In this document: positions 2,433 to 60,499 of the stretch, in pieces
Numbering within the stretch: the stretch's first letter is position 1
Layout: each line of letters opens with the position of its first letter
DNA from: a virus
Strand: one strand, 5' to 3'
IMG/VR virus record: IMGVR_UViG_3300022843_000013
Location: 1-64,000 of that record
Length of the DNA stretch: 64,000 bases
Notes under the pieces: generated by a model
What the model was told of the DNA's origin: nothing
The model's input: the letters and a program-made list of their open reading frames with translations, nothing else
Databases searched by the model: none
Position numbers and translations under genes: made by a program

Positions 2433-2434
2433 GT

Positions 2435-2857
2435 TTATTGGTTGTTGGTAATATGAGTGGTAGCTTTATATTCATTGAATTCACGACCCGCGTTTCGCCG
2501 GGTCTTCCAAGTGTGCATCGTATTCAGCTGGCCCCCTTCGTGGACCCAGATGAATGTGTTAGTGGCTTTACCGACATCGTTCGCTTTTTGATAAGTCACG
2601 ATCGCGTCAGTAACGTCTACGACGTGCCCAAGCACGTCGCCAGTGGACAGGAAAGCAACCCAGTCCCCCGGCTTCGGCCATGTGTCCGCCACGCCGACGT
2701 AGGGGTCGCGGTCGTAGAACACGACGCCGCTCACCCTGCGATCTTCGATAGAGCGAAGGCCGACGTAGCGCGCTCTTACTTCAGCGTCGCTCCCATCCTC
2801 CGCTTCAAGCGTGGGGCCGCGACGTCCGCCAACTAGTAACAATCTTATTTTACGCAT
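2435..2857 (-). CDS. Hypothetical protein
   Basis: Fits the operon packing. Confidence 0.55.
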   Translation of the reverse strand: MRKIRLLLVGGRRGPTLEAEDGSDAEVRARYVGLRSIEDRRVSGVVFYDRDPYVGVADTWPKPGDWVAFLSTGDVLGHVVDVTDAIVTYQKANDVGKATNTFIWVHEGGQLNTMHTWKTRRNAGREFNEYKATTHITNNQ

Positions 2858-2912
2858 TTACGTCTAGGTTTGTTTTGTAAGCGGGGCGATCCCCACTCCT
2901 TCAGCTGGTAAT

Positions 2913-3422
2913 TCATGACTTGGAGAGTTTCTCAATTACGGATTTCATAGTCTGGGACGCGTCCCAGTGGTAGTCCATCTCCGTGTGAAACGACCCGCCA
3001 GCTGCGAGTATACCTCCCAAATCGATGTAACCGTATTCGGCACACTCGGGCATCCCGGACAGACGAGCGTAGCCTAATGCTTGAGACTGCTCTCTCATTC
3101 CTGCGGACTTCTCCTTCTTAGTAAGGGGGACGTCTTTGGCGATGATCCACCAGTCCCCCGCGGGGTGGAAGTAGTGCAGCGCCGCGCTTGGCTCGTCCGC
3201 ATCCTTGTCGGTCACGGTCGGCATCTCGGCGATGGCCGCGTGCACCTTAGCGATCACCTCGATGTAGCTGTCGCCGTCGCCGCCTCCTAAGATTAGTTCA
3301 GCCGTGGTCTTGGCCTGCACGCGATGCATGAAACCGGCGTCCCATATTTCCTGAATTTGAGCGACCGCTGCTCCTTTCCTTTTTGATAAGTTTTTGTAAT
3401 TAAACATGTCTTCAATTTTCAT
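2913..3422 (-). CDS. DUF2958-like protein
   Basis: HYF...DWWI...GYA.L...EYGYIxL motif. Confidence 0.55.
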   Translation of the reverse strand: MKIEDMFNYKNLSKRKGAAVAQIQEIWDAGFMHRVQAKTTAELILGGGDGDSYIEVIAKVHAAIAEMPTVTDKDADEPSAALHYFHPAGDWWIIAKDVPLTKKEKSAGMREQSQALGYARLSGMPECAEYGYIDLGGILAAGGSFHTEMDYHWDASQTMKSVIEKLSKS

Positions 3423-3453
3423 TGTTTTTTATTTTTGTTTTTGTGATCCCCTA

Positions 3454-3765
3454 TCAAATTAGGCGGTAGGGGCGCCCTTTACTCTGCGGCCGACTCCAGA
3501 AGCGATTATCAGATCCCTCCTGCACGTCAGCGCGCACTGAAAAGTCGCTGGATTTTAGTTGAGTCCCTCGCAGGAGGTTCTCCAGCTCTACCGATATTCG
3601 GTTAAGAGCGTCACGCATCGTCACGTCATTCTCCAGCGTGAAGGATCGCACGACGTCGCAAGCAGGGTTTATATCGCCTAGGATGCAGGCAGCAGCCCGG
3701 ACGTCTGCCGGGGTGTGTAGCGGGCCCTCGTGGAACGCGAATTTAATCGGTGTGAGTATTTTCAT
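3454..3765 (-). CDS. Hypothetical protein
   Basis: ORF with A-rich leader. Confidence 0.55.
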   Translation of the reverse strand: MKILTPIKFAFHEGPLHTPADVRAAACILGDINPACDVVRSFTLENDVTMRDALNRISVELENLLRGTQLKSSDFSVRADVQEGSDNRFWSRPQSKGRPYRLI

Positions 3766-3997
3766 TTGGTTGGTTGGTTAGTTCTATGATGTCGTCCCCG
3801 GATAAACCGTGCGTCATCAGATACTGTATTTTTGACTTGATCCCGTTTTCGCAGACCTCCTCCGCAAGTTTCGCCGCGACGACCTTAACCTCCCGTCCTA
3901 GCGCGAGACTCGCCTCGGGACTATCCGGTAAATCTCCCAAGACGAGACCCACTTGGTAAGCTAGCCACGCACGATACTCGCTATCTTGTCCCATCAT
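3743..3997 (-). CDS. Hypothetical protein
   Basis: Fits the operon packing. Confidence 0.5.
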   Translation of the reverse strand: MMGQDSEYRAWLAYQVGLVLGDLPDSPEASLALGREVKVVAAKLAEEVCENGIKSKIQYLMTHGLSGDDIIELTNQPNENTHTD

Positions 3998-4165
3998 TTA
4001 GCACCTCCGACTACGGTAAGACGAGACTCCACCCACCACGTCGGCGCGAGAGTTTCCCGCTTGAGTCCGTCGAAGTAGCGCCCGACCTTGGTTAGGTATC
4101 CCTGAGACACGGCGGCTTTGATTGGTTTATATTGTTTATTTGAATTCATTTTGTTATCGTTAAAT

Positions 4166-4198
4166 GAAACAGGGCGACCTAGCGGGACGCCCTGTTTC
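4166..4198. terminator. Stem-loop, probable terminator
   Basis: GAAACAGGGCG...CGCCCTGTTTC inverted repeat downstream of the exonuclease gene. Confidence 0.55.
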
Positions 4199-4219
4199 TC
4201 GTCGAATTGCTAAGTCCCG

Positions 4220-4855
4220 CTACGGGACTAAGGGAGGCGCGTAGTCCTCGCCCTCTAGGGGTTTAACGCTAGGCGTGCTTCCGATGTAGCCTTTCAGCTC
4301 TGGGACGGCGCCAGCGTCCACCAGGTAGTCCAGTAAGACACGCGTGCCGCGGACGTCAGCGAGCGCGTCGTGCGCGCCCTGGAGGTCGTGCCCGCACAGG
4401 ATCTTAAGCGCCTCGGCTAATCCGGGCCATTTGTAATCGTCATACTTACCTGGTAGTTTGCAGAGGTCCTTCGACCCCAGCATTGTGCAGTAGGTGGACT
4501 TCCACTCGCACGGTCCGTGATTGTCGAGCCGTTTTAAGTTGGCGTCCACGACGGGCTGGTCGTATCTCAGGTTGTGACACACCAGAAGGTCAGCGTGCTG
4601 GGCCTGTCCGGCGACCCACTTAAGCACAGCGGCGGCGGGGAAGCCCCGAGACGCCGCAACATCAGAGATGCCGTGAACACGCATTGCCCCGCTCGGTATT
4701 GGGATTGGGCATCGCAAAATCGCCATCCTCTCTTGGATGAGGACCGGCGAATCCGTCTTCGAGTAGGCTATAGTCTGCAGCGCGATCTGGACGATGTGCG
4801 GGTCGCTCTCTAGCCTGCCCGTAGTTTCCGTATCCATTATTATAACAGTTTTCAT
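4220..4855 (-). CDS. DnaQ-like DEDDh 3'-5' exonuclease
   Basis: ExoI DTETTG, ExoII HNLRYD, ExoIII HDALAD. Confidence 0.9.
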   Translation of the reverse strand: MKTVIIMDTETTGRLESDPHIVQIALQTIAYSKTDSPVLIQERMAILRCPIPIPSGAMRVHGISDVAASRGFPAAAVLKWVAGQAQHADLLVCHNLRYDQPVVDANLKRLDNHGPCEWKSTYCTMLGSKDLCKLPGKYDDYKWPGLAEALKILCGHDLQGAHDALADVRGTRVLLDYLVDAGAVPELKGYIGSTPSVKPLEGEDYAPPLVP

Positions 4856-4875
4856 GACTGGTCGACGTTATTGAT

Positions 4876-5430
4876 TCACCTGTTTGGGACAAGGATAACC
4901 TTGTGCTGGTAGAGCACGACGTCGTGGGAGTCAGACAGGTAATTCTTAAAGTCGGCGGCGTGTCTCCCGTCGCCTACGAACTCTCGCACTAACGCGCAGT
5001 CTTGCGGCAGCGTGATACGGCGGGACGAAGCGTCACCGACGAACAGGTTGAATCCGTAGGCCGGCAGGGGTTGATGGGACCGGGTGAGTAGCGCATGCAT
5101 GAGGTTTCTCAACCCACGTAGAATGTCCGCAACGCTAACAGGCACCTCGGTGGGTATGCCCCAGCCAAGAGGGTAATACGGGACGCCTGATTGCTCGTGA
5201 AGATCGGACCAGTCGGATGCGTTGCTAAACTCGCGCAGCTCCTGATTGAAGAACTCCGCGCCGGACCCCTCCAGCTCTTCGTAGAGGTATAGGTAGTCCT
5301 CCTCGGAGATTAATCGCATCGCGTCAGCAATGGCAGGGGATGAGTCGAGCAGCTCGCGCAGGGTGAGCCAGCCTTCCTCTCGCATCACGGTTTCGGAAGA
5401 GAGGGCGGGTGGTATGGTTATTTTTGACAT
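4876..5430 (-). CDS. Hypothetical protein
   Basis: Likely start MSKITIPP near 5430. Confidence 0.5.
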   Translation of the reverse strand: MSKITIPPALSSETVMREEGWLTLRELLDSSPAIADAMRLISEEDYLYLYEELEGSGAEFFNQELREFSNASDWSDLHEQSGVPYYPLGWGIPTEVPVSVADILRGLRNLMHALLTRSHQPLPAYGFNLFVGDASSRRITLPQDCALVREFVGDGRHAADFKNYLSDSHDVVLYQHKVILVPNR

Positions 5431-33499: not shown

Positions 33500-34585
33500 C
33501 TAATCTGGTAATTTTAGTGTTTTGCCCTGTAGGTCGGTAGGGCTTACCCAAGATTTCTTACCCGTGCGACGGTCGAGAAGCAACTGATAAATTTTACCAT
33601 CGGACCCGATACGAGTCCCGTAAGCCAGTCGAACATCGATACCGGCCTTCTCAGAGTTGCCAGTCCAGTAGCATGCCGACTCGCAGCTGTCCCTGACAAC
33701 CAAACGACCCCCCGGGACTGAAGCGCAGTAAACTAGACCGTCGTGATGCTCAGTGTGCCAGTCGTCGCCCGACACTCCGACGTGCGACACGCCCGATAGG
33801 CGAGGCAGCCACACGGGCAGTCCGTATAGTTTGCTTGCCGCTAGGACCAGCTCCTCTCCGTCGTTTCGATATAAATTTCCTATGACCCTGTGATTAGGCG
33901 TCACGGCCATGCGGACCTCGCTGTTCTCGACCACCAGAAGCTCTCCGGTGTAGTGCTCTCGCACGACACGCTCCGCGCGGTGCCACTCGATCTTATCGCT
34001 GCTCCCGCACGCGAATACTTCCGAGTCCTCAACGTCGCACCAGGGAACCCACCCACGCTCAGTGAATACCTCACTCTCCCCTGTCAGACACTCCGGTCCG
34101 GCAATGGTATCGATGAACCCAAACTGCGAAGCGCTAACAGCCTGCATGTCACCCGTAATAGCGTTGGGATCCCCGATGCCTCCGGGGCCCATTTTAGTAA
34201 TTCGACGTTGCTGCTCCAAGATGTGCATCGGGTTAATCTCCTCCAGCGCTGGGACCAGGGGGTTACTTGTGATGTAGCCGGTCGTGTATTCTCCGAAGGT
34301 GTCCGGACCCATCGGATTCAGGTTCTTCGCGCGAGCCACGCGCCCCATCATCTTTCGTAGGACCTTTCCGTGATCCAACTTAACCCTCTCGGACATCAGT
34401 TGATCCACCATGTAGATGCGATCGTTGGGTAGCGAGTCTCGGTCATCAGTCTCCGCCAGTCCCCGGTTGACCGCTAGTAGCTTCTCCGACGCGGCAAGTA
34501 GACCGTCCACGCCGATAGACGAGTATGTTTCAAACTCGTCGTCGTCGGCGATATACTGATGTCTCTGTTTTGATTTGGTGGTCAT
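33500..34585 (-). CDS. RNA polymerase beta middle fragment, intein-containing
   Basis: DDRDSLPNDRI (cf. DDIDHLGNRRI), NPMHILEQQRRITKMGPGGI (cf. [20 protein letters not shown]), GFID..GPE|SEKAG; start MTTKS at 34585 overlaps the upstream TGA. Confidence 0.9.
   Translation of the reverse strand: MTTKSKQRHQYIADDDEFETYSSIGVDGLLAASEKLLAVNRGLAETDDRDSLPNDRIYMVDQLMSERVKLDHGKVLRKMMGRVARAKNLNPMGPDTFGEYTTGYITSNPLVPALEEINPMHILEQQRRITKMGPGGIGDPNAITGDMQAVSASQFGFIDTIAGPECLTGESEVFTERGWVPWCDVEDSEVFACGSSDKIEWHRAERVVREHYTGELLVVENSEVRMAVTPNHRVIGNLYRNDGEELVLAASKLYGLPVWLPRLSGVSHVGVSGDDWHTEHHDGLVYCASVPGGRLVVRDSCESACYWTGNSEKAGIDVRLAYGTRIGSDGKIYQLLLDRRTGKKSWVSPTDLQGKTLKLPD
33656..34090 (-). mobile_element. Mini-intein (145 aa, no endonuclease) in RNAP beta
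   Basis: Begins CLTGESEVFT, block B VTPNH, block F VYC, ends WTGN followed by Ser. Confidence 0.9.
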
Positions 34586-36072
34586 TTTAAATCTTCGGGC
34601 TGTATGTATCCGTCTAGCGCCATCGCCATGAGTGCCCGGGGTGTAGGGACGCCCTCCTGCATCTCGGCGCCTCTCTTGCCCGCTTTTAGGGATAGATTGA
34701 TGGCGGCGTCGTCGTCGAAGTCGTGACGGTTCATGAACCACTTCACGAACTCCCCTCGGCGATACTTCTCCATCTCTTCTTCCACCTGCAGGGCTTTGTC
34801 TCCCGGTAGCATCTTCAGAGGGTCAATGCCCCAATTACGTAGCGCGAAAGCCCGTCGGGGCGTTGGCTTCGCTACGAATTGGGCACCATGCCGCGCCTTA
34901 AAGGACTTCCACCTCTTCTTCTGATGTTCGTCCGTCTCCCCGCGCTGCCCGTCGTGGTATTTCTCATACCATTGCAGCCAACCCTTCTGGTTTTCGTCGT
35001 CTAGCCAGTGCTTGGGCCACTCGCGCATCGAGGCGAGCTGAGGTCCGTGGTTGCCGTAGATTGAGTTGTACACCTCGCGCATCCCGTTCGGCTCAATATC
35101 GGGCTCGAATCCCGCAGCTTTTTCGACACCATCAAAAAACCCCACCCAGTCGTCGGATACCTCGTCGGGAGACATGTCCGGGGCGAATGTCGCGGACGAT
35201 CTCTTAATCATGTCCTGCGCTATTTGTATGACGGCTCCGGCCCTCCGCCAACTGGCGGCCTTCTCCTGGCTATACAGGTTGGGTAGGTTCCTTCGCATGA
35301 TCGCGTCGGACACCTGCGCCCTGTCCATAGCCGCTCGAATGGCTGCTACCTTTTCGTCAAAAGGAAGTCCTTCGTCACGCTCCCACTTGGGAACAGACTT
35401 GCGGTAGGCCCGCGCGAGTGCGTGCTTTGAATATTTCGACTTGTTGGACGCAAGTATCTCCGGTCCCCACCTTCGAGAGAGCTCCTCGTCGGTCACTCCC
35501 AAGTCTCGAAAGATGGAGTAGGCGTGCAGGTCTGAGGATCCTATCTTTAATCTGTATTGCGCGGTGGTGGGTTCGAAGGACACTCGCATCGCGGAGCCCG
35601 TCCCCGGTCTCGTATTGAAGTGATTCTCGAGTTCCCCGTTGGCGCGCCTCCTGGCGTAGGTCCCCGGGAGAAGTCTAGACTGCGACACCGGACTAAACTC
35701 GCTCCCGTTGTTGATGAAGGTGTTACGCTCCGTTAAGTAGGGCACGCGGGCCAAGGTCATGTTCTTCTTCGTGTCGAGGACCTTGTTGGTCTCCTCGTCC
35801 ACCAACCTGACGGTCCCGCGGAGTCGGCGATGCAACAGGCTGTCAGACGCCTTGGCCTCTGCCTGATCTTTCAGGGAATACTCCTCCTTGTCGGTATACT
35901 TGAGGTCGACCAATTCTAGACGCACTCCGCCGTAGGAAAACCCGTTTGCGTAACGGTCCATGGATTTCATTATGCCAGACTCTAAGGCCCTCCGCGTGGC
36001 GGTCGAGTCCTCTGGGTCACGTAGAGTCACCCCCGGGGGCGCTGATGGTTCGTCTTCCGGTATCACACCCAA
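34582..36072 (-). CDS. RNA polymerase beta N-terminal fragment fused to an unrelated C-terminal domain
   Basis: RVPYLTERNTFINNGSEF..SQSRLLPG (cf. [28 protein letters not shown]); C-terminal GWLQWY..G.R...D..Q.KRW..F..RH domain after KAA linkers. Confidence 0.85.
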   Translation of the reverse strand: MGVIPEDEPSAPPGVTLRDPEDSTATRRALESGIMKSMDRYANGFSYGGVRLELVDLKYTDKEEYSLKDQAEAKASDSLLHRRLRGTVRLVDEETNKVLDTKKNMTLARVPYLTERNTFINNGSEFSPVSQSRLLPGTYARRRANGELENHFNTRPGTGSAMRVSFEPTTAQYRLKIGSSDLHAYSIFRDLGVTDEELSRRWGPEILASNKSKYSKHALARAYRKSVPKWERDEGLPFDEKVAAIRAAMDRAQVSDAIMRRNLPNLYSQEKAASWRRAGAVIQIAQDMIKRSSATFAPDMSPDEVSDDWVGFFDGVEKAAGFEPDIEPNGMREVYNSIYGNHGPQLASMREWPKHWLDDENQKGWLQWYEKYHDGQRGETDEHQKKRWKSFKARHGAQFVAKPTPRRAFALRNWGIDPLKMLPGDKALQVEEEMEKYRRGEFVKWFMNRHDFDDDAAINLSLKAGKRGAEMQEGVPTPRALMAMALDGYIQPEDLK

Positions 36073-36320
36073 TGTATACCGCGACCCCGAGGGGTTGGCA
36101 ACACCGATGCGTCATGCGAGCATTTTCTTAAAAAGGTCACCGGCGCCGCCCCCTGAGAGAATCCAAGAGACCAAGCCAACACCACCCCCGCCACATATTC
36201 CCCCACCGGCGACGACAGTAGGCACAGAGCCAACAGAACCAACACCGCCCAAGAAATGAAGAAAGAGAGCAAGATTTGGGCGATACGGAATGCTTTTTTA
36301 GGTCGTTTTTCTCCGGTCAC
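36063..36320 (-). CDS. Small membrane protein
   Basis: Two hydrophobic segments; preceded by a copy of the hairpin repeat. Confidence 0.45.
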   Translation of the reverse strand: MTGEKRPKKAFRIAQILLSFFISWAVLVLLALCLLSSPVGEYVAGVVLAWSLGFSQGAAPVTFLRKCSHDASVLPTPRGRGIHWV

Positions 36321-36332
36321 TTAACCCAGAAA

Positions 36333-36360
36333 GCCCGGCCAATTCAATGGTCCGAGCGGG
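36333..36360 (-). repeat. Hairpin leader repeat, copy 1
   Basis: GCCCGGCCAATTCAATGGTCCGAGCGGG; homologous copies at 37904-37950 and 38173-38218. Confidence 0.8.
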
Positions 36361-36376
36361 CTTGGGTTGGTATTGG

Positions 36377-36724
36377 CTACAGTCCCCCGTCAGAGTCGGG
36401 GACAATCTGCTCCATAATTGAGAGCAATAGATTCTCGGAAATCACTCCGTCTCGATACGCCTCGGAAATCTTAGCGTCCCCGACGATTATGCAATCTGAC
36501 TTCTGATCTGGCATCACCATTAATGGGAGCCCGAGCAGAGTTGAAATAACTGGTGATGTTTCGGTTGTTGTTATTGATTCATATCTCACGACATTCATCG
36601 CTGAAGAACTTAAGAAGTAAATTCCTTTACGTTGGGGGATGTCGGCGATTTTTTGAATCATGTCCGAAATGATATTCGGAGTAAGTGCGTCACAAGGAGA
36701 TGAATCCAATTTTGTTTTACTCAT
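36377..36724 (-). CDS. Hypothetical protein starting inside attC-1
   Basis: AT-rich ORF; ATGA overlap at 36721-36724. Confidence 0.55.
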   Translation of the reverse strand: MSKTKLDSSPCDALTPNIISDMIQKIADIPQRKGIYFLSSSAMNVVRYESITTTETSPVISTLLGLPLMVMPDQKSDCIIVGDAKISEAYRDGVISENLLLSIMEQIVPDSDGGL

Positions 36725-36766
36725 GGTTTATTTTTATCTTTCGGTGGCAGGATGGAGGAGTTCTCT
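36686..36766 (+). mobile_element. attC-1 (degenerate integron attC-like site)
   Basis: Left GCGTCAC-AAGGAGATGAATCC (AAC decayed to CAC); right GGATGGAGGA-GTTCTCT. Confidence 0.55.
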
Positions 36767-37005
36767 CTAAGATTCCAGAAGTGCCCCGCTCCTTGTTCAT
36801 TGGTTTCTAAGGTGCAGTGGCATTTCGTGCATCCAACGATGCAACTGGTGCGACGGTTTCCCAAGCGTTCAATTTTTGCCTCCCCACCGCAAAACGGACA
36901 CGGCAGGAGAGAACAAGACGATGCAAAACAATCGCCAAGGCAAACGCTATGTGATCCACACGCGGAGGGTGTGGGGCAGTCTTTATGTGGATCGAAGTCA
37001 CTCAT
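36721..37005 (-). CDS. Lar-like (restriction alleviation) Zn-ribbon protein
   Basis: LLPCPFCGGEA...VGCTKC...WNxR; starts inside attC-2 and stops inside attC-1. Confidence 0.75.
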   Translation of the reverse strand: MSDFDPHKDCPTPSACGSHSVCLGDCFASSCSLLPCPFCGGEAKIERLGNRRTSCIVGCTKCHCTLETNEQGAGHFWNLRENSSILPPKDKNKP

Positions 37006-37032
37006 GGCGATGTTTGATCTTGGTTGTTCATC
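36908..37032 (+). mobile_element. attC-2
   Basis: AGAGAAC-AAGA...CAAAACAATCGCCA / TGGCGATGTTTGA-TCTT..GTTCATC; inner GATCCAC/GTGGATC stem; two unpaired bases in the left arm. Confidence 0.85.
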
Positions 37033-37535
37033 AAAGATGGCCAGTTGTCGGGATTCACAGCAGCCCACCAGATTACTTCTTCGGGGCACACGCCGGAATC
37101 GTCAAACGTGCCATCAAGTAGATTCAGGACCGAGTAGTGTTCATCGCATGACGTATCGACGAGGATTGTTTTCTCTCCGTCGCTGTATTTTACGATTACT
37201 AAGATCCTTTCGCCGTCGCCCCAGAAGTAGCTTTCAGAATCGAAGTCTTCGTGCGCTGGTCCTTTACGCCATTCAAGCGGCTTCCTATCTGCTTCGATTG
37301 CAACGCTTTTCTCTTCATTCCTAGAATTGAGGAGCGCGGCTACCATAGTCGAGAAATGTGACCCTAAAAAGTCAGCTTGAATCTCTTCTCCATTCTCTCC
37401 CATGGTAAACGAGAGAAAGCCGGGAATGTGCCCCGTGTCTGTGCAGTGGTCAGTCCAAGCGTCTTGGAGTGCCTCAGATAAGTCATCCTCGTCAATGAAG
37501 AGATCGCTTGATGTAGTCGTGGTTTTCATGTTCAT
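37002..37535 (-). CDS. Acidic hypothetical protein ending inside attC-2
   Basis: Stop overlaps the Lar-like ATG inside the attC. Confidence 0.6.
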   Translation of the reverse strand: MNMKTTTTSSDLFIDEDDLSEALQDAWTDHCTDTGHIPGFLSFTMGENGEEIQADFLGSHFSTMVAALLNSRNEEKSVAIEADRKPLEWRKGPAHEDFDSESYFWGDGERILVIVKYSDGEKTILVDTSCDEHYSVLNLLDGTFDDSGVCPEEVIWWAAVNPDNWPSLMNNQDQTSP

Positions 37536-37589
37536 GATTTGTTAATTTTTTCGATAAAGTCAATTTGTAATTCTTCAGGCTCGCGCTTA

Positions 37590-37907
37590 TTAATCAGCGT
37601 GGAATATAGCAGATGCCAAGCATTGATTGGGGTGAATTCTTCCCTCATGGTCCAGCTCCCGCATCGGTGGGGTTGGGCTGACTTTGAGCGTCTCTACGGC
37701 GTAATGGATCTGGCACCCCGCTATGAACATGGATCCGATTTGAACATACCAATTTGTTGACCCGCGGTTAGTTTTTATTCCGAGGGTTTGCTCATCAGAC
37801 ATGACCGCTTTTATGGTTCCAAATACGGCTCGGTAGCTTTCCCCGTCGGGGGCGATAAACCATTCGTCTGTGGTTATTAGATATTTTTTTCCTATAGTCG
37901 GTTTCAT
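37590..37907 (-). CDS. Conserved hypothetical phage protein
   Basis: MKPTIGKKYLITTDEWFIAPDG..YRAVFG...IAGCQIHYA. Confidence 0.65.
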   Translation of the reverse strand: MKPTIGKKYLITTDEWFIAPDGESYRAVFGTIKAVMSDEQTLGIKTNRGSTNWYVQIGSMFIAGCQIHYAVETLKVSPTPPMRELDHEGRIHPNQCLASAIFHAD

Positions 37908-37950
37908 TTCACCAGCAATGCCCGGCCAAGTCAATGGTCCGGGCGGGTTG
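37904..37950 (-). repeat. Hairpin leader repeat, copy 2
   Basis: On the - strand CCCGCCCGGACCATTGACTTGGCCGGGCATTGCTGGTGAA-ATG. Confidence 0.8.
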
Positions 37951-37966
37951 GTGGTGTTTCCTTAAA

Positions 37967-38176
37967 TTAAGTCATGACGTTAGGGTCAATTCCATCTACC
38001 CAAAAGGTTCTCGCTTTAGATACCTGGGAAAACCCGACACACATCAGGATTGAAAAAACCTCTCCTTCATGAGCTGAAGCTAATCGTTCAGCCTCGATCC
38101 GAGCACTAATAATCGTTTGGTGGCGGACTTGTGGCGATGTCCCCCCTTCGCGCAAGACGTAGTAATATGTTGTCAT
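37967..38176 (-). CDS. Small conserved phage protein
   Basis: P.VRH....A..EAERLA..H.G..F motif; start MTTYYY directly after repeat copy 3. Confidence 0.65.
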   Translation of the reverse strand: MTTYYYVLREGGTSPQVRHQTIISARIEAERLASAHEGEVFSILMCVGFSQVSKARTFWVDGIDPNVMT

Positions 38177-38218
38177 TTCGCCAGCAATGCCCGTCCAATT
38201 CAATGGTCCGGGCGGTTG
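38173..38218 (-). repeat. Hairpin leader repeat, copy 3
   Basis: On the - strand CCGCCCGGACCATTGAATTGGACGGGCATTGCTGGCGAA-ATG. Confidence 0.8.
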
Positions 38219-38243
38219 TAACTGTCCGACGCTACGGACCCTC

Positions 38244-38726
38244 TTAGGGCCGAAGGTCAGGGGAGTTCGCATCAGAAACAACGACCTCCGCCTTGAGTAG
38301 CTCGACCGTGTTCCTGAATGCGCGCTCCAACATCTCTGGCGTCATCTCCAAATCATAGACGCTACCGCTCCGCGCCATCCCTGCCATCACGCAGTCCGAT
38401 ATGTATTCGATCACGTCGAGAAGATTCACATCCTCTGGCACTCCGTCCTCTTGTCCGAGATGGTGTCGGTGAATCTTTCTATGATTGTCCCACCATCCAG
38501 TTTTCTCGAATCCTGTGATGAAGTCATCATGGAACCAGTCGATTGCCGTTAGCTTGTCGTAGTCGTGCTCCCCAGCGGCCTCGGTGAGTTTGCCGATGAA
38601 GAACGCCATGGCTTTTACTACGTCGCCGATATGGGTGCGACTGGAAGCTAAAAGCGTTTCCTTGGTGGTGTTGGCGTAGTCGCAGGTCCGTGTGTCTGCG
38701 GTGGCGGATTTGGTTATTGGTATCAT
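38244..38726 (-). CDS. DUF5662-like HD-type protein
   Basis: HI..V, HDxDK, H...HRHH, LLDVIEYISD..MAG..R; start MIPITK at 38726; ends in attC-3. Confidence 0.65.
   Translation of the reverse strand: MIPITKSATADTRTCDYANTTKETLLASSRTHIGDVVKAMAFFIGKLTEAAGEHDYDKLTAIDWFHDDFITGFEKTGWWDNHRKIHRHHLGQEDGVPEDVNLLDVIEYISDCVMAGMARSGSVYDLEMTPEMLERAFRNTVELLKAEVVVSDANSPDLRP
38248..38272 (+). mobile_element. attC-3 (right half only)
   Basis: GGTCAGGGGA-GTTCGCAT; this core is the exact complement of the attC-4 left core. Confidence 0.6.
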
Positions 38727-38750
38727 AAAGGGTTTAGGTAATTCGGAAGA

Positions 38751-38852
38751 ATGCGAACAAGTCGGCGCTGGCAACAGATGCCAGCGGTGAAGTTTGGTTA
38801 GGAATCGGAGTCGGCTCCCGCTGGTAGCGGTGCCACACCTTGGACGTTCTCC
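38751..38852 (+). mobile_element. attC-4
   Basis: ATGCGAAC-AAG..TGGCAAC..CCAGCGG / CCGCTGG..GTGCCA..CTT..GTTCTCC. Confidence 0.85.
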
Positions 38853-38866
38853 ATAGAAATAACACA

Positions 38867-39163
38867 ATGAAAACCACCCAAGAAGTCTACGACGCCCTCG
38901 TGGCATACATGAACAAGTTCACCGAACCAGCGAGTTCCTGGTATGCAGGAATTGCAGCCGATCCACGGGACAGATTGTTCAGCGATCATAATGTTAATGA
39001 AACGAATGGTCAGTGGGCGTTCGATACATGCTCAACAGACACTGACGCCAGAGCTGTCGAGGCCGCCATGTTGAAGCTCGGCTGCAAGGGCGGCGGCGGT
39101 GGCGGCGACCACACGACCAAGAGTTGTTATGTCTATTTTATCACCAACTCGACCGTCGAGTGA
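38867..39163 (+). CDS. Cassette gene, 98 aa, possible GIY-YIG-like fold (copy 1)
   Basis: ATG about 20 nt after the attC GTT, in normal cassette orientation; WYAGIAADPRDRL..H...ARAVE motif. Confidence 0.75.
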   Translation: MKTTQEVYDALVAYMNKFTEPASSWYAGIAADPRDRLFSDHNVNETNGQWAFDTCSTDTDARAVEAAMLKLGCKGGGGGGDHTTKSCYVYFITNSTVE

Positions 39164-39334
39164 TGGGCACGGAAACTCATGCGGGTGATTTTCGGCTGAC
39201 ATGACCTCGCCTGTCTCGACATCCACTGTCTCGATCCGAACAGATATTCTAGTTTTAATATTCATTTTGTTTTTAGCGGTCTTGCATTCCGAACTCACCA
39301 CTCAAAGGCAGGTGACGCCTAAGAAAATTAAGAA

Positions 39335-39463
39335 GGAGAACAAGACGGTGGTGGACAACCGCCACCAGCCCCACTGTTTACATGATCCTGCGTAGCCACA
39401 ACCTCAACCCTGTTTTCGGAGTCGGCTCCCGCTGGTAGCGGTGCCACACCTTGGACGTTCTCC
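39335..39463 (+). mobile_element. attC-5
   Basis: GGAGAAC-AAG..TGGACAACCGCCACCAGC / GCTGGTAGCGGTGCCA..CTT..GTTCTCC. Confidence 0.85.
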
Positions 39464-39477
39464 ATAGAAATAACACA

Positions 39478-39774
39478 ATGAAAACCACCCAAGAAGTCTA
39501 CGACGCCCTCGTGGCATACATGAACAAGTTCACCGAACCAGCGAGTTCCTGGTATGCAGGAATTGCAGCCGATCCACGGGACAGATTGTTCAGCGATCAT
39601 AATGTTAATGAAACGAATGGTCAGTGGGCGTTCGATACATGCTCAACAGACACTGACGCCAGAGCTGTCGAGGCCGCCATGTTGAAGCTCGGCTGCAAGG
39701 GCGGCGGCGGTGGCGGCGACCACACGACCAAGAGTTGTTATGTCTATTTTATCACCAACTCGACCGTCGAGTGA
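39478..39774 (+). CDS. Cassette gene, identical copy 2
   Basis: Identical to 38867..39163. Confidence 0.75.
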   Translation: MKTTQEVYDALVAYMNKFTEPASSWYAGIAADPRDRLFSDHNVNETNGQWAFDTCSTDTDARAVEAAMLKLGCKGGGGGGDHTTKSCYVYFITNSTVE

Positions 39775-39938
39775 TGGGCACGGAAACTCATGCGGGTGAT
39801 TTTCGGCTGACATGACCTCGCCTGTCTCGACATCCACTGTCTCGATCCGAACAGATATTCTAGTTTTAATATTCATTTTGTTTTTAGCGGTCTTGCATTC
39901 CGAACTCACCACTCAAAGGCAGGTGACGCCTAAGAAAA

Positions 39939-40334
39939 TTAAGAAGGAGAACAAGACGGTGGTGGACAACCGCCACCAGCCCCACTGTTTACATGATCCT
40001 GCGTAGCCACAACCTCAACCCTGTTTTCGGAGTCGGCTCCCGCTGGTAGCGGTGCCACACCTTGGACGTTCTCTGGGGAAAATAAAAGACCTGACATCAA
40101 GACCGGAACGTGACCGTTGCCCGAAAATAGCGTCGAGTCCCCGGGTGCGTAATCATCAAACCAAACGCACAGACCGCGCTCGGGGTGATCATATATCTCT
40201 ATTGGTTGCTCGCCGTCGTAATCCCTGCCGTCAGCGTTCGAAACTGTCCAGAAACCAGAGAACAAGGCATCGCTGCCAATGACTACCGCGTCGGAGTTAT
40301 TGGCGATTTCGGAGTTATTTTGCGCGGTATTCAT
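39939..40334 (-). CDS. Hypothetical protein starting in attC-7 and reading through attC-6
   Basis: MNTAQNNSE start at 40334; the C-terminal ENVQGVAPLPAGA...PPPSCSPS is the antisense translation of attC-6. Confidence 0.5.
   Translation of the reverse strand: MNTAQNNSEIANNSDAVVIGSDALFSGFWTVSNADGRDYDGEQPIEIYDHPERGLCVWFDDYAPGDSTLFSGNGHVPVLMSGLLFSPENVQGVAPLPAGADSENRVEVVATQDHVNSGAGGGCPPPSCSPS
39946..40076 (+). mobile_element. attC-6
   Basis: Same as attC-5 up to GTTCTC, then diverges (GTTCTCTGG). Confidence 0.85.
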
Positions 40335-40356
40335 GGTAGGATTTAAGCGTTCGCGC
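40255..40356 (+). mobile_element. attC-7
   Basis: CCAGAGAAC-AAG..CTGCCAATGACTACCGCG / CGCGGTATTCATGGTAG...GTTCGCGC; one unpaired base in the L box. Confidence 0.85.
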
Positions 40357-40587
40357 TTAGAACCAGCGCCAGTTTTGAGGCATCGTTTGCCATTCAAATC
40401 TCATTTGCTTTGCCGCACAACCGCTTGGCCGGTATGCTGGGTCTTTTGCGTAAACTGGGTGGGGTTTAATCGCCAGCCTCCTCACTAAAAGCCAACGGAC
40501 GGAGCGAACAAGGCGATGATGATACGCCCTTAATCGTTGGAACTTTTGGGGCGTGGCGGTAGTTGGTGGTGATTCTTGCGTGTTCAT
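40357..40587 (-). CDS. Small hypothetical protein starting in the attC-8 remnant
   Basis: ATGA overlap with the recQ stop. Confidence 0.45.
   Translation of the reverse strand: MNTQESPPTTATPQKFQRLRAYHHRLVRSVRWLLVRRLAIKPHPVYAKDPAYRPSGCAAKQMRFEWQTMPQNWRWF
40502..40553 (+). mobile_element. attC-8 (left half only)
   Basis: GAGCGAAC-AAGGCGATGATGATACGCC; core complements the attC-7 right core at 7/8 positions. Confidence 0.55.
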
Positions 40588-42302
40588 CGATTCAAGTGTT
40601 GTTCCAGAAACGTGTGCTTCATGTCGTCTGACTGGTTCGCGTAAGTCAAAACCAGCTGCAGATCGGCCTCGGCGGACCTAGCCTTGTCGTCGAGCCGTCG
40701 GAATGCCTCCGCCGGGATGTCATCGGGTGACAGGCCCAGCCTGAGGGGCTTTGAAGTCGACGGCCTAACCCACTCGATCTTACCGTCGCTGCTCATCTTA
40801 CGCAGATGGCCGGCTACCGTCTGGGGCGCCCGACTGAGTTGCTCGGCCAGCTCGTCCAAGTTTATCTGAACCCACCCGTCATCCCCTTCCAATCCGATAT
40901 CATAAATGGCGTCTCGCGCTTTCTTGTCCGTAGGAGTGAGGGACGGAATGTTCTCAGCGAAACGGACGCGTGACTTGCGTGCGGCACTCTCGTCATTAAT
41001 GAACATGCGTTCGCCGTGGCAGAAAGCCATTATCGACTGCACCGCGAATGTATCGACGCCAGCTTGTCGGGCTATGTCGTCACGCTTCGCCGTAATAATA
41101 CCGCTGGATCCCTCGCGCATACTCTTGGCTGCGGCCCAGAATTTCCGTATGTCTTCCTGGGACGGACTACCGCATCGGATGAAGTGTCGCTGCGTGCGAA
41201 CGCCCTCCTTGGTCGGAATAATCGTGCAGAAAGAATCCGCACCGTCCCGACCTGCGCGCCCGAACTCTTGCGTGTAAGCCACTAGCGTCCCTGGTATGTC
41301 GAAGTGGACTACGGACCTAATGTCGCCCTTGTCTACGCCCATACCGAAGGCGCACGTGGCTACGATGATAGCGTCCGGAGACGCCATGAACTTGTCCTGC
41401 TGGTAAGTTCGATCTTTCGTGGACATCTTTCCGTGGTAGAACAGGATGTCCCGATCTGTGTAAGACTGCAGGGTGGACGCGTAGAGCTCCACGCGCTTTG
41501 TAGTGGACGCGTAAACAATCGTCGCCCCCGGGCAGTTCTCAAGCAACCATTGATACTGGTCGGATTGATTTTCGGTGAATAGGGACGACAGGTGCAGGTT
41601 AGTCCGTCTCGGGTAGTGGTAGATTAACTCCGCCCCCTCGATACCAAGACCGGCTCGGCATTCAGCCTCAGCGTCGGACGAGAGCGTAGCTGAGAAAGCT
41701 GCGACAACTTTGGGAGCGACGTCCTGAATCATGAGGCCCGCGGACTTATAGCCGGGACGGAAGGTGTCGGCCCAGTCCGCGAATGTGTGGCACTCGTCGA
41801 GGGCTACGAAATCAGGAGGATACTGTCGCACCACGTTAGCCCACTCCGGGTTGGCGAATCGCTCCGGGGAGACGAGCATAAACTGCAGGTCGCCCGCCGC
41901 CCAATCCCGGAGGACCGAAGCGTTGTGCCCGTCAGTCTCGGCGCTGGATATCGTCGCAGCGGCCAGTCCTTTGCGCTGCATCGAGGTTGACTGATCCCTC
42001 ATCAGGGCGATAAGCGGGTATATGATGATAGTCTTCCACCCCATGCACAACGTGGGGACCACGAAGCATGCGGACTTACCTAAGGAAGTCGGCAGTATCA
42101 CCACGGAATCTCGGCCCGTCATGATGGATTTGACCGCGCGGTCCTGACCTGGTCGGAGGCTTTCGAACCCGAGTTGATTCAGGACGTAGGGCATCTTCTT
42201 CATACCCTCTGCATATGCTTTCACTTGACCCATGGTAGCGACTTCTTTTCTAGATTCGATCTTGATGTCTTTCGACGATGTTTTTTTTACAGCTGGTGGC
42301 AT
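40584..42302 (-). CDS. recQ: RecQ-family helicase
   Basis: LRPGQ, PTSLGKS, SPER, DECH...W...FRP, SAT, ATCAFGMGVDK.DIR, QEFGRAGRDG. Confidence 0.93.
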   Translation of the reverse strand: MPPAVKKTSSKDIKIESRKEVATMGQVKAYAEGMKKMPYVLNQLGFESLRPGQDRAVKSIMTGRDSVVILPTSLGKSACFVVPTLCMGWKTIIIYPLIALMRDQSTSMQRKGLAAATISSAETDGHNASVLRDWAAGDLQFMLVSPERFANPEWANVVRQYPPDFVALDECHTFADWADTFRPGYKSAGLMIQDVAPKVVAAFSATLSSDAEAECRAGLGIEGAELIYHYPRRTNLHLSSLFTENQSDQYQWLLENCPGATIVYASTTKRVELYASTLQSYTDRDILFYHGKMSTKDRTYQQDKFMASPDAIIVATCAFGMGVDKGDIRSVVHFDIPGTLVAYTQEFGRAGRDGADSFCTIIPTKEGVRTQRHFIRCGSPSQEDIRKFWAAAKSMREGSSGIITAKRDDIARQAGVDTFAVQSIMAFCHGERMFINDESAARKSRVRFAENIPSLTPTDKKARDAIYDIGLEGDDGWVQINLDELAEQLSRAPQTVAGHLRKMSSDGKIEWVRPSTSKPLRLGLSPDDIPAEAFRRLDDKARSAEADLQLVLTYANQSDDMKHTFLEQHLNR

Positions 42303-42766
42303 GATGATAATTGGACTGCGGTTACGACGCTAGTTCTTCCGTCTTCGGTGACTACGGTGTGGAATATCCCGCGTATGGGGAGATTCCACACCGACCTGAT
42401 GAACGGTGTGTCTCGTTGGCTCGAAGCGGCAACGAGCCATATGGCGTCTTTGCCGCTTCGCTGCGTGTCTTTTACGACCCACACTTCCCCGGACGAGCAC
42501 AGCATCTCGTCAACGAACTCGGAAACCATTCCCGGCTTAGAGTTCATGATGCTGTTGGCGACATCCACTTCCCAGGCATACAGGCCGACAACTTCGGACA
42601 CGAGCATACTTTGATACGGGGGAATTCCGTCCATTTCTGAGTAGCGCTCGCATACTTCTTCAACGGTCTCTAGAGGGGACACGCCGAGTATGGAGGCTAG
42701 AGTGCGGGCTACTCCGGTTCCGGAGGCCTTCACTACCTTGGGTGTTATTTTCTTACGTGGTGGCAT
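42287..42766 (-). CDS. Hypothetical protein
   Basis: Overlap-coupled ORF. Confidence 0.6.
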   Translation of the reverse strand: MPPRKKITPKVVKASGTGVARTLASILGVSPLETVEEVCERYSEMDGIPPYQSMLVSEVVGLYAWEVDVANSIMNSKPGMVSEFVDEMLCSSGEVWVVKDTQRSGKDAIWLVAASSQRDTPFIRSVWNLPIRGIFHTVVTEDGRTSVVTAVQLSSCHQL

Positions 42767-44403
42767 TACTGTATTGTTGGTGGCTTCTCCTCTGCCTCTC
42801 CCTGCTCGTCTGCGGTCGCCTCAACTAGCCCCTCGACCATACCGGCAATCTCGTCGAGATCGTCGTCATCTTCATCCGGTGGCTTTTCCTCGTCTACCGG
42901 CTCCTCGTAGCCTTCAATGCCGAGCGCTGCACCGACGAATTCCAACTCGTTCGGGTTTGCGTATAGAGCGGCGTACAACGCCTCGTCGGTGACGGCTACG
43001 CATCCAAGCACGTCGCACGTGTAGCGGGGACCTGCGGACATGTTGGCGGTGTTGACGGTCGTCCCGAGAAGTCCGCGCTTGACCATAAACGAGGCAAACC
43101 CGGGGGCGTAGGACAACGGGCGCCCGTAGGTTTCCTTGGTGTCTTCGTATTTGTCATAGTAAAGCGCGAAGTCGCACTGTCGGAGCTTTGCCCCGTAGCT
43201 ATTCTTGATCATCGTCAGGCGGACGTTCTGCCCGTATGTGAGTTTATCTCCTGACTTTTCCTTAATGTCCCCGACGCCCATCAGCGTGAACCTGTAGGCG
43301 CAGAACTGACGGAACGCCCGCCCGCCGATGCGCGTGTCGTTTTTAGTCTCGGAAGGTGTCATGAATGAAGGTAGGGATTTCTTCATATCGACGCGCTCGT
43401 TCTGGTGGTTTACGTAGATCATGACGCAGTTATACTCATCCATGAACTCTCCCATCTCTCGCTTAGTGACCTGAGCGTGTTTTGAGTGCCCCATATTGGA
43501 CCCAGAGAGGGCGTCTTTCGGCGCCTCTTTCTTAGCGTTCGCCGGTAAGCCCCAGCTTGATCGACCCACGGCCTCCGCGGAAGACTTAAGGCTGGACCAA
43601 GGGTCGACCACCACGAATATGGGGTTGCCCTTCGTCTCCGGGTTCTCGTCGCATCTCTTGCGAAGCTCGGGAACGGTTTGCTTGATCGTGTTGTCACACT
43701 CGACAAGCTGTCGGGCGCTGGAGAACTCGATAGTATTCAGGAGAAGCGCGGCCGTCTTCTTGTTTTTGTGCAGGATCCTGGAGATGTGCTCCGGCTTCAT
43801 CTGTTTGTTCTCGCACTCGATATAGAGGGAGTAGCAGCCCATCATGGACGCCCTCCCCAAGAAGTCGAATATCCATGTGGTCTTCCCTACGGAGTCTGGG
43901 GCTACCATCTCGATGGCGGTAGGCGTGCGCAGACCGATGCATCCGATGACGTTCTGCATGCCGATCTCCTCGAACGGAAAAAGTGTCTTACGTAGCATTG
44001 AGGGCGTGTATAAGCGGACGGGCCGCTTGGCGGACCTCTCGTTCAAGATGTCCATCGTTTTGTTCACGTTCTCCGCCATGCTGTGCAGAACTTTTCCTTG
44101 GTTATCGGACGTTATGCGACGCTTGATGGTTTGATTCTTGGAACTCAAAAGGTCGGGTTTGTAGGACGGTCTTTTCTTGGCTGCCTTTTTGGCTGCCTTT
44201 TTAGCGACCTTCTTGGCTGCGACCTTTTTAGCGGCTTTCTTAGCGGCTTTCTTGGCGGGCACCCTCTTGGCTACCTTATCGTTGGCTGTCTTATCGTTGG
44301 CTGCCTTAATGGTTTCGTATATCTTCAATGAGATTTCCGCTGATGTGGCGGTGGTTTTATTTTCCTCCGGCTCCTTTTCTGAAGTCTTTTCGTTTTCGTT
44401 CAT
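42766..44403 (-). CDS. RecA/UvsX-like recombinase with a histone-like N-terminal extension
   Basis: Walker A PDSVGKTT, YIECE, Walker B VVVD, YVNH, GGRAF, KNSYG; KKAAKK repeats. Confidence 0.85.
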   Translation of the reverse strand: MNENEKTSEKEPEENKTTATSAEISLKIYETIKAANDKTANDKVAKRVPAKKAAKKAAKKVAAKKVAKKAAKKAAKKRPSYKPDLLSSKNQTIKRRITSDNQGKVLHSMAENVNKTMDILNERSAKRPVRLYTPSMLRKTLFPFEEIGMQNVIGCIGLRTPTAIEMVAPDSVGKTTWIFDFLGRASMMGCYSLYIECENKQMKPEHISRILHKNKKTAALLLNTIEFSSARQLVECDNTIKQTVPELRKRCDENPETKGNPIFVVVDPWSSLKSSAEAVGRSSWGLPANAKKEAPKDALSGSNMGHSKHAQVTKREMGEFMDEYNCVMIYVNHQNERVDMKKSLPSFMTPSETKNDTRIGGRAFRQFCAYRFTLMGVGDIKEKSGDKLTYGQNVRLTMIKNSYGAKLRQCDFALYYDKYEDTKETYGRPLSYAPGFASFMVKRGLLGTTVNTANMSAGPRYTCDVLGCVAVTDEALYAALYANPNELEFVGAALGIEGYEEPVDEEKPPDEDDDDLDEIAGMVEGLVEATADEQGEAEEKPPTIQ

Positions 44404-59321: not shown

Positions 59322-59362
59322 GAAACGCCGACTTGGATAATACCGAGTCGGCGTTTCTGTTT
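59322..59362 (+). terminator. Strong hairpin / possible terminator
   Basis: GAAACGCCGACT...AGTCGGCGTTTC followed by TGTTT. Confidence 0.55.
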
Positions 59363-60499
59363 AAAAGAAGAACGAACCGGGGCGATCGTTGCACAACGCA
59401 AAACCGCGTTATTGGTGAAGCAACGGCTGTTGCATTTACGTAAGTCCATAGTAATCAAGGTCTTAAACGTTGTAAAACCACAAAACCCGATCCCTACGTG
59501 CGTGTATGCGTATTATTGTTTTTCTACGCGGAGGATCGGGTTTTGTGGTTTTACAACGTTTAAAGAACTACACGACAGTGCGTTATGAAGATGTAATATC
59601 CGTTGCTAACGCGTTTACGTGAAAACGCACCTACAAACATTACCCCGGAATCGACTACTTTGTAATGTCTGTGTGATTACTTTGTAAATATTCTTTGCGC
59701 ATCCGGTAGACTAGGGACCGAGACACCCCGGGCAGTTCCGTCTTGCTACGCCCCTATCTAGGTCGAAGTCCGTGAAGCTGAATGCCCGGCAACCCTTGCG
59801 ATGCGGTTTAATGCTCCCAGCAGCCTCTGCACGGAGCCGCGCGGCTACATTGCTACAAACTCCGGTCTCAGCCATGATCTCTGCGTGTGGGCGCCCTCAC
59901 TACTCCCGGGAAGTATGTCAGTTCGAGACTCGTCGATCTCGTGAGATTTGCGAGTCGGCGTTTCTGTTTAAAAGAAGAACGAACCGGGGCGATCGTTGCA
60001 CAACGCAAAACCGCGTTATTGGTGAAGCAACGGCTGTTGCATTTACGTAAGTCCATAGTAATCAAGGTCTTAAACGTTGTAAAACCACAAAACCCGATCC
60101 CTACGTGCGTGTATGCGTATTATTGTTTTTCTACGCGGAGGATCGGGTTTTGTGGTTTTACAACGTTTAAAGAACTACACGACAGTGCGTTATGAAGATG
60201 TAATATCCGTTGCTAACGCGTTTACGTGAAAACGCACCTACAAACATTACCCCGGAATCGACTACTTTGTAATGTCTGTGTGATTACTTTGTAAATATTC
60301 TTTGCGCATCCGGTAGACTAGGGGCCGAGACACCCCGGTCAATTCCATGATCTTTTTAGTGCTCAGGGACTTCCAGTCTAGGTCGAAGTCCGTGAAGCTG
60401 AATGCCCGGCGACCCTTGCGGTGCGGTTTAATGCTCGCAGCAGCCTCTGCACGGAGCCGCACGGCTACATTGCTACAAACTCCGGTCTCAGTCATGATC
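59344..60499. repeat. Direct duplication (about 540 bp, offset 607), each copy with a 31-bp perfect inverted repeat
   Basis: Copies start at 59344 and 59951; IR arms at 59463-59493/59533-59563 and 60070-60100/60140-60170. Confidence 0.93.
59655..59880 (-). pseudogene. Degenerate copy of the 3' half of 60262..60729
   Basis: Near-identical DNA apart from an altered block near 59740-59756; no matching 5' half. Confidence 0.65.

Follow-up and report, generated by a model that had tools for sequence, protein, structure and literature searches.

Integrons are usually studied as bacterial devices, and clusters of attC sites in phages were reported only in 2023, as static features: integrase-less attC clusters (CALINs) occur in phages, virulent ones included, and their attC sites are active in an IntI1 assay (PMC9892861). 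No further phage cases beyond that report were found in the later literature searched. By definition, the two or more attC sites of a CALIN share a strand, are spaced by less than 4 kb, and have no integrase nearby, and insertion at secondary sites has been proposed as one of their origins (PMC4889954). The preprint of Loot et al. (bioRxiv 10.1101/2022.09.11.507474) describes such IntI-mediated insertion, by IntI1, at genomic GWT sites (attG). Here, we analyze the first 64 kb (hereafter, the window, i.e., the whole stretch of 64,000 nucleotides) of a 77,760-nt virus record, IMGVR_UViG_3300022843_000013 from IMG/VR, which carries six attC sites on its + strand within 3.7 kb, with no integrase nearby. 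The region is very probably a CALIN in a phage, filled at two secondary G|TT sites by an integron integrase acting in trans.

Like the phage CALINs of Qi et al. (2023; PMC9892861), this region is an integrase-less cluster in which some sites are separated by several open reading frames (ORFs) or are themselves in an unusual orientation. It differs in that it belongs to an uncultured salt-lake phage, has attC sites of the Verrucomicrobiota type, and allows both junctions to be reconstructed to the base; an interrupted phage gene, reversed cargo trimmed at the cores, and cassette differences between sister genomes are features absent from that paper. The sites of Qi et al. are demonstrated IntI1 substrates. 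The attG insertions are similar in that they use G|TT outside att sites, leave a complete attC site on the right and six cassette bases on the left, and may hit coding sequence. In our case, the target is a natural phage one, the two insertion points have ten bases in common (GGAG|TTCATC), a greater specificity than that of GWT, and one of the insertions is a five-cassette array. New here are the base-level footprint in a phage gene, trimmed and reversed cargo whose starts and stops are borrowed, and the turnover of cassettes among phage genomes that are identical.

The identity of the repeats was assessed with a covariance model (R1) built from 25 aligned genuine Verrucomicrobiota attC sites, all adjoining integron integrase (intI) genes that score above the TIGR02249 cut-off. 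The structure of the alignment is 89.9% paired, with a covariation of 0.52 versus 0.135 in shuffles. In held-out arrays, R1 identified 65 sites (E<=0.01), none of them on the wrong strand; in 482 kb of unrelated loci, it had zero matches. When the window was scanned with filters off, the six best matches were the sites of the array, with E>1 for all others, and the remainder of the 77.8-kb record contained nothing comparable. As these six matches are all on the + strand, this is the top strand of the array. The sites are thus genuine integron attC sites in the + orientation. All large ORFs of the window, on the contrary, are on the - strand; the array is antisense to phage transcription, as claimed in a preliminary description of this DNA made without database searches.

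The attC site of the first H cassette is a 129-nt imperfect palindrome consisting of GGAGAAC, 5 nt, a left arm, a right arm, 6 nt, and GTTCTCC, and in the Lar site AGAGAAC is separated by 5 nt from L'', which has extra bases, and L' by 6 nt from GTTCATC. Inverted 7-nt cores are present at the palindrome ends of these two sites and of the sites of the G cassette, the second H cassette, and cassette iii. The extra bases are confined to the left (+ strand) arm, and the spacers are of 5 nt on the left and 6 nt on the right, again as in genuine sites. The sequence GAACAAGNC is found six times in the 77.8-kb record, always on the + strand at 36911–40506, and all six occurrences are attC left arms. 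DNA folding z-scores range from -1.1 to -3.6, which is weak evidence alone and is not relied on here, and an Rfam scan of the region yielded no match.

The integron integrase gene was found in 116 of the 401 Verrucomicrobiota genomes searched. In the DNA beside 19 intI genes, a geometry scanner detected 43 sites on the strand expected from intI and 4 on the other one. The cores of these genuine sites read GCC[T/C/G]AAC and GTT[A/C/G]G[G/C]C, the spacers are [C/A]AG[G/T]C and TTTRAC, and the extra bases of the left arm follow the third pair. Phage and genuine sites have in common GCGAAC-AAGGC (GAAC|AAGNC) and TTGGAC-GTTC. More generally, the chromosomal arrays of Verrucomicrobiota (G001, G267, G171, and others) resemble the phage array in attC geometry, GAAC/GTTC cores, AAGNC and TTGRAC spacers, extra bases in L'', and complementarity of the first six cassette bases to the core of the same cassette. 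They differ in that they adjoin intI, have homogeneous attC sites scoring 30–59 bits, and carry a top-strand ORF in 40 of 46 cassettes, whereas the phage sites are heterogeneous (15–26 bits), no intI is nearby, and the cargo is mostly reversed. Homologues of gene H, 74% identical, are present in two Verrucomicrobiota metagenome-assembled genomes (MAGs), both encoding an integrase above the TIGR02249 cut-off. When 400 kb of Verrucomicrobiota arrays was searched with the cassette proteins (tblastn), no shared cassette was found; a 160-kb contig carrying the same proteins exists. The enzyme that acted on the phage was most likely an integron integrase, and the host probably belongs to the Verrucomicrobiota. 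The case also suggests that attC type could mark the host of a phage.

The textbook core consensus misses attC sites of an entire phylum: the motif GTTRRRY would overlook the R' cores of Verrucomicrobiota that start with GTTC, i.e., approximately 30% of them (loci L062 and L095–L114). The Verrucomicrobiota-trained model, for its part, missed both sites of a gammaproteobacterial array.

In genuine arrays, the six bases to the right of G| are the start of the following cassette, and they are complementary to the inverse core of that same cassette. This rule delimits the cassettes listed in the table, where the complementarity is complete for all cassettes except the last one; complementarity to the core that is now adjacent in the same attC site is only 3–5 of 6. 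In the second H site, the R' core is GTTCTCT, since its TTCTCT is part of the cassette that follows. An interpretation of the region as a single insertion in which genes D, E, and F form a further cassette was rejected, as the first six bases of that segment fit no core of its own; it is also disfavored by a hairpin family of the phage that occurs both inside and outside the block. Since it breaks the own-core rule and carries the phage hairpin family, the D-E-F segment is read here as phage backbone between two insertions.

The first insertion is a single cassette that interrupts gene D at an AAC codon, 12 codons from the end of the gene. When this cassette is removed in silico, ...LMN of gene D joins SSILPPKDKNKP* in frame, yielding a D protein of 182 aa. 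The stop codon of the restored D gene runs into the start codon of gene B, which identifies the ATGA at 36721 as the inherited phage junction of D and B. In the present arrangement, the last seven residues of D and its stop codon are read from the attC right arm. The second insertion comprises five cassettes (G, H, H, iii, and iv) and was placed at a hairpin foot, a single base past the stop codon of RecQ. Its left junction has an attC-like geometry and can be taken for a pseudo-attC entry site or for a degenerate attC. The empty sites would read GGAGGAG|TTCATCAAAG and AGGGGAG|TTCATCGATT. Two of the attC sites proposed in the preliminary description did not survive this analysis: its attC-1 (~36687–36766) has no AAC core, no fold (z +0.95), and no R1 match, and is the left junction of the first insertion, and its attC-5, likewise without an R1 match, is a junction or pseudo-site. 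Within cassette iv, a symmetrical palindrome of 114 nt (40357–40470; TTAGAAC ... GTTTAAT) was picked up by the geometry scanner on both strands and was not picked up by the covariance model; it may be a further decayed attC, which would make cassette iv two cassettes.

Table. Features of the attC array and of the adjacent phage genes, in window coordinates. Fractions give the complementarity between the first six bases of a cassette and its own inverse core; bits and E values refer to model R1.
Feature	Coordinates	Strand	Description
Gene B, phage gene	36377..36724	-	115 aa, orphan; coding-like codon usage; ATG overlaps TGA at 36721-36724
Lar-like ORF	36721..37005	-	94 aa; residues 1-32 antisense attC, 33-81 zinc ribbon (cassette body), 82-94 tail of gene D and stop codon
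Left junction of insertion 1, GGAG|TTCTCT	36757..36766	+	G 36760 phage-derived; TTCTCT opens Lar cassette
Lar cassette	36761..37026	+	266 nt; TTCTCT vs own AGAGAAC, 6/6
attC of Lar cassette	36908-37032	+	14.7 bits, E 0.11; fold z -2.3; crossover 37026|37027
Gene D, phage gene	37002..37535	-	177 aa, orphan; coding-like codon usage
Gene E, phage backbone between both insertions	37590..37907	-	PHROG 22562
Gene F, phage backbone	37967..38176	-	PHROG 28324/17352
Left junction of insertion 2	38216..38271	+	hairpin TTGTAAC ... G|TTCGCA, attC-like geometry; fold z -2.1; no R1 match
Gene G	38244..38726	-	160 aa; reversed in cassette, no stop codon of its own; last 8 residues from core and flanking DNA
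G cassette	38266..38846	+	581 nt; TTCGCA vs own TGCGAAC, 6/6
attC of G cassette	38752-38852	+	16.7 bits, E 0.036
H cassettes, two identical copies	38847..40068	+	611 nt each; TTCTCC vs own GGAGAAC, 6/6
H genes, two copies	38867-39163 and 39478-39774	+	canonical cassette orientation; only + strand gene
attC of H copy 1 (GGAGAAC ... GTTCTCC)	39335-39463	+	25.9 bits, E 1.4e-4
ORF I	39939..40334	-	131 aa; starts in one attC, continues through cassette iii fragment, then antisense through whole second attC
attC of H copy 2	39946-40074	+	23.0 bits, E 7.7e-4
Cassette iii	40069..40349	+	281 nt; TTCTCT vs own AGAGAAC, 6/6
attC of cassette iii (AGAGAAC ... GTTCGCG)	40257-40355	+	22.9 bits, E 8.5e-4; includes ATG 40334
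Cassette iv	40350..40582	+	TTCGCG vs own AGCGAAC (40503), 5/6; G|TTCATC at 40582
ORF J	40357..40587	-	76 aa; codon score -0.22, not best frame; no family match
Degenerate attC of cassette iv	40503-40542	+	16.1 bits, E 0.05; fold z 0.02
RecQ-like helicase	40584..42302	-	stop codon one base from right junction of insertion 2

Differences between phage genomes of the lake coincide with the same borders. In the probable source run, the read depth of the H unit is 2.3x that of its flanks; hence, the H duplication is real. Loose ends of contigs at 38265, 38758, 39952, 40066, and 40263 are all located at core borders. A search by the loose-end pattern identified a 5-kb contig, Ga0208768_1004584 (L116), in which bases 1930–5035 are 100% identical to 40066–43171 of the window (3106 nt). 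To the left of its AC-G|TTCTCT junction, this contig carries two other cassettes (Y1 and Y2), with attC sites of 30.6 and 19.2 bits, which obey the own-core rule. At positions 18–1932 of the contig, an IS91-family Y2 transposase (PF04986 and PF14319) is present as a cassette in the canonical orientation, and the second cassette is a 538-nt internally deleted copy of the transposase cassette with the same attC. Given the identity to the right of the junction, the same phage backbone holds different cassettes up to the same G|TT. The array thus differs between otherwise identical phage genomes from one lake, and it appears that recombination is ongoing and that the array is still being reshuffled in this population.

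Several - strand ORFs of the array are chimeric, and their similarity to known proteins stops at cassette borders. The Lar-like domain scores 31.2 bits with Pfam PF14354 (cut-off 28.6) and 30.4 bits with NCBIfam TIGR03655 (cut-off 39.6), and only Lar turned up in PADLOC and NCBIfam searches. Nearly all of the 1081 homologues of this ORF align only to residues 30–84, and they begin 2–10 residues before CPFCGG, without the 32 attC-coded residues. In one relative, P0052, residues 1–82 are shared with 82% identity, the attC-coded part included, and the similarity ends immediately behind the AAC codon. Over 152 residues, gene G has 62% identity to a protein of a Methanosarcina virus that is itself 152 residues long and ends with ...VVDD*, and gene G extends past the end of this homologue with ANSPDLRP, beginning exactly at the core. 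The body of cassette iii is a reversed gene fragment, without approximately 13 N-terminal and 50 C-terminal residues of its full-length homologue P0044 (135 aa). In public contigs, ORF I has two alternative N-termini and two alternative C-termini, which are found in all four pairings and switch at the two cores (predicted protein variants P0047, P0049, P0041, and P0048); P0049 changes right after the AAC codon. The junction-spanning peptides predicted for the chimeric ORFs are LMNNQDQTSP, MSDFDPHKDCPTPS, VVSDANSPDLRP, FSPENVQGVAPL, MSDFDPHKDCPTPSACGSH, and FSPENVQGVAPLPAGA vs. FSPENVKISRATLEA. No protein family was found for gene D or ORF I. Codon usage is coding-like in genes B, D, E, G, and H and in the ORF I body, but not in the attC-coded stretches or in ORF J; ORF J is probably not a gene.

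These data bear on several claims of the preliminary description. The ATGA overlaps at 36721–36724, 37002–37005, and 40584–40587 and the ATG at 40334–40332 are located as it stated, the second overlap being inside the Lar attC site and the ATG inside that of cassette iii. Only the overlap at 37002 is cassette-borne, as the one at 36721 is the inherited junction and the remaining one precedes the non-coding-looking ORF J. The suggestion that shuffling preserves translational coupling along the operon is not supported. Among the C-termini attributed to antisense attC right arms, ENVQGVAPLPAGA indeed corresponds to the right arm of the second H site, but in ENSSILPP and ANSPDLRP only EN and AN originate from the core. 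The rest of ENSSILPP is the displaced native tail of gene D, i.e., not attC, and SPDLRP is encoded by phage intergenic DNA or by the degenerate site at 38216–38271, which has no R1 match. As to the proposed phage-type cargo, the Lar-like domain passes the cut-off of Pfam but not that of NCBIfam, while the resemblance to DUF5662 is weak (E 0.009, below the cut-off), even though gene G has the close viral homologue. The expectation that similarity ends at the attC cores was borne out by gene G and by the Lar homologues. Finally, the suggested swapping of protein termini at G|TT agrees with the four forms of ORF I and with the other cassettes found up to the same G|TT in L116. Crossover at G|TT changing predicted protein termini is thus supported by genome comparison.

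The gene H family is the canonically oriented part of the cargo. At the loci of H homologues in 48 genomes, R1 with default filters found no attC at E<=0.01, and hence the family is not generally cassette-borne. In a gammaproteobacterial MAG (G003:C48, L064:1508-1717), a 43%-identical H homologue is located, reversed, between intI and the first attC.

We suggest the following scenario. An integron integrase, most likely supplied in trans by the host, would insert cassettes into two secondary G|TT sites of the phage sharing the ten-base junction. The array is antisense to phage transcription, and as a result - strand frames cross cassette borders. Gene D now terminates in attC sequence, and the Lar frame takes its start codon from the L' arm of the Lar attC and its end from the old tail and stop codon of D. 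Gene G is left without a stop codon of its own, and ORF I combines a gene fragment with attC-derived termini on both sides. Reshuffling with breakpoints at the cores alters the predicted termini. Some of the chimeric ORFs may be translated. Cassettes were inserted base-precisely into the phage, and one of the two insertions rewired the ends of phage genes.

A number of observations weigh against this scenario. Neither the PF00589 nor the TIGR02249 model had a match in the 77.8-kb record (42% complete), i.e., no tyrosine recombinase and no intI were found there, for which reason the enzyme itself is a matter of inference. Half of the sites are weak (3/6; E 0.036–0.11), and the E values of R1 are rough. 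The ten-base identity of two independent target sites is left unexplained. No empty-site pattern of either insertion, nor of the 'X' junction, was found in IMG/VR viral contigs. The breakpoints at 39952 and 40263 are located at the inverse core rather than at R', which the canonical bottom-strand reaction does not predict. The right half of the G attC is identical to that of the H attC for 42 nt before G|TT, which suggests homologous exchange in addition. Lastly, a strict scan of the region found no textbook RYYYAAC...GTTRRRY pair, the window cores reading GAGAAC/GTTCTC. The latter objection was dropped, as genuine Verrucomicrobiota sites deviate likewise: with GAAC/GTTC in 30% of the 43 genuine sites, the textbook pair is not a defining feature in this phylum.

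Two further explanations were considered. The repeats could be regulatory or terminator hairpins of the phage itself, akin to those of phage 'moron' blocks, with which the region shares the appearance of a low-GC block of small genes between replication and transcription genes and hairpins of its own at gene starts. Indeed, the repeats are located at gene borders of a low-GC accessory block (G+C of 0.48–0.52 at 36–40.6 kb vs. 0.55–0.60 around), and a second, distinct hairpin family exists in the phage (36317, 37904, 38173). However, ordinary hairpins would show neither conserved ends with variable centers nor the own-core rule nor site-specific replacement, all of which characterize the attC family here. 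Given also the R1 matches with strand-specific positive and clean negative controls, the replacement of cassettes at G|TT while the backbone stays identical, and the detailed agreement with genuine sites (GAAC|AAGNC, TTGGAC|GTTC), we regard this explanation as very improbable. It is hardly credible that the record is a chimera of a bacterial integron piece and phage DNA, although it was assembled from a metagenome and has repeats unfriendly to assemblers: contigs from independent runs span the phage-cassette junctions with depths of 145.5 and 146.3 on the two sides, the region is present in 24 runs, each of the two blocks joins phage sequence precisely at G|TT on either side, and L116 links other cassettes to the same RecQ gene.

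The remaining alternatives accept the attC sites and concern the meaning of the cargo. The attC-crossing - strand ORFs may be accidental read-through, the cassettes being silent and the termini neutral or mildly harmful by-products; the chances of this are, in our view, only slightly short of even. The codon scores of the Lar N-terminus (-0.47), the ORF I tail (-0.21), and ORF J (-0.22) are non-coding, true genes scoring +0.30 +/- 0.14; ORF I represents only part of a longer gene and, like D, has no family. With 16 such overlaps among 112 - strand ORFs, ATGA is commonplace in this phage and shows nothing alone. At the same time, the Lar zinc ribbon is complete and can be translated only from the ATG inside attC, gene G is intact except for the stop codon and scores as coding, and each of the two reversed cassettes without a start codon has CCATGA within its attC, in the L' arm. 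P0052 differs from Lar at 2 of the 32 attC-coded residues vs. 13 of the other 50 aligned ones, which argues against read-through, but constraint on attC at the DNA level would yield the same pattern. The trimmed, reversed cargo also bears on the open question of cassette origin, and one may speculate that the reversed cassettes (G, Lar, and iii) were carved from phage genes by an integrase at GTT/AAC rather than imported ready-made. The cargo is of a viral type (the Lar anti-restriction domain and the Methanosarcina virus homologue of G), and trimming occurs exactly at the cores, with G lacking a stop, Lar a start and a stop, and iii both gene ends. Cargo is reversed in three of the four ORF-bearing cassette types vs. 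6 of 46 in genuine Verrucomicrobiota arrays, and excision 'outside' the integration point is reported in the preprint of Loot et al. Nevertheless, we consider such genesis unlikely. The first block is a pre-existing cassette inserted into gene D, not a capture, P0052 shows the Lar cassette, attC-coded N-terminus included, in a different context, and no intermediate was seen. The excess of reversed cargo could equally result from selection for genes expressible by phage transcription. Carving from phage genes is, besides, compatible with insertion by a trans-acting integrase. Together, the two would make phage genomes working substrates and perhaps birthplaces of cassettes: the integrase would act at AAC/GTT in phage genes to produce reversed cassettes of trimmed genes, CCATGA in attC would serve as a stop-start module, antisense landing would result in coupled translation, and reshuffling would generate new protein ends. 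This extended model is, likewise, improbable on the present data.

As to the phage itself, the record is 42% complete according to CheckV, and the same DNA is present in at least 24 salt-lake metagenome runs. The array region is flanked by an RNA polymerase piece and the RecQ-like helicase. No close cultured phage was identified (megablast of 18 kb against phages gave no match), and the RNA polymerase piece matches only Vibrio and Salmonella phages at 27% identity. With RecQ and gene D as queries, no usable related loci were obtained in viral or metagenome contigs, and a hairpin pattern search in viral contigs also gave no match.

The second hairpin family is unlike attC and is found both inside and outside the array, at 36317–36369, 37904–37956, and 38173–38225. 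It has a 9-bp G+C stem, a bulged A, and a TTGAAT/TTGACT loop, and the hairpins end 13–14 nt before the start codons of the - strand genes A, E, and F. Gene F is absent from one population variant, in which a contig of one run joins 37945 to 38214; this join removes the gene between two copies of the hairpin. The family is probably a phage regulatory element doubling as a recombination point.

Several other features were observed elsewhere in the record. An exact tandem duplication with a period of 607 nt is located at 59344–60250 and is not matched by the attC model; each unit contains a palindrome of 101 nt with perfect 31-nt arms and a 39-nt loop (59463–59563 and 60070–60170). The RNA polymerase beta-like ORF (33500–34741) contains a stretch, ...GPECLTGESEV..., that resembles an inserted domain of the Hint/intein type. 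Beyond the window, at 75104–75154 of the record (L115:13105-13155), there is a near-perfect G+C-rich hairpin of 51 nt (AACGAACGTGCCC...GGGCACGTTCGTT), probably a terminator.

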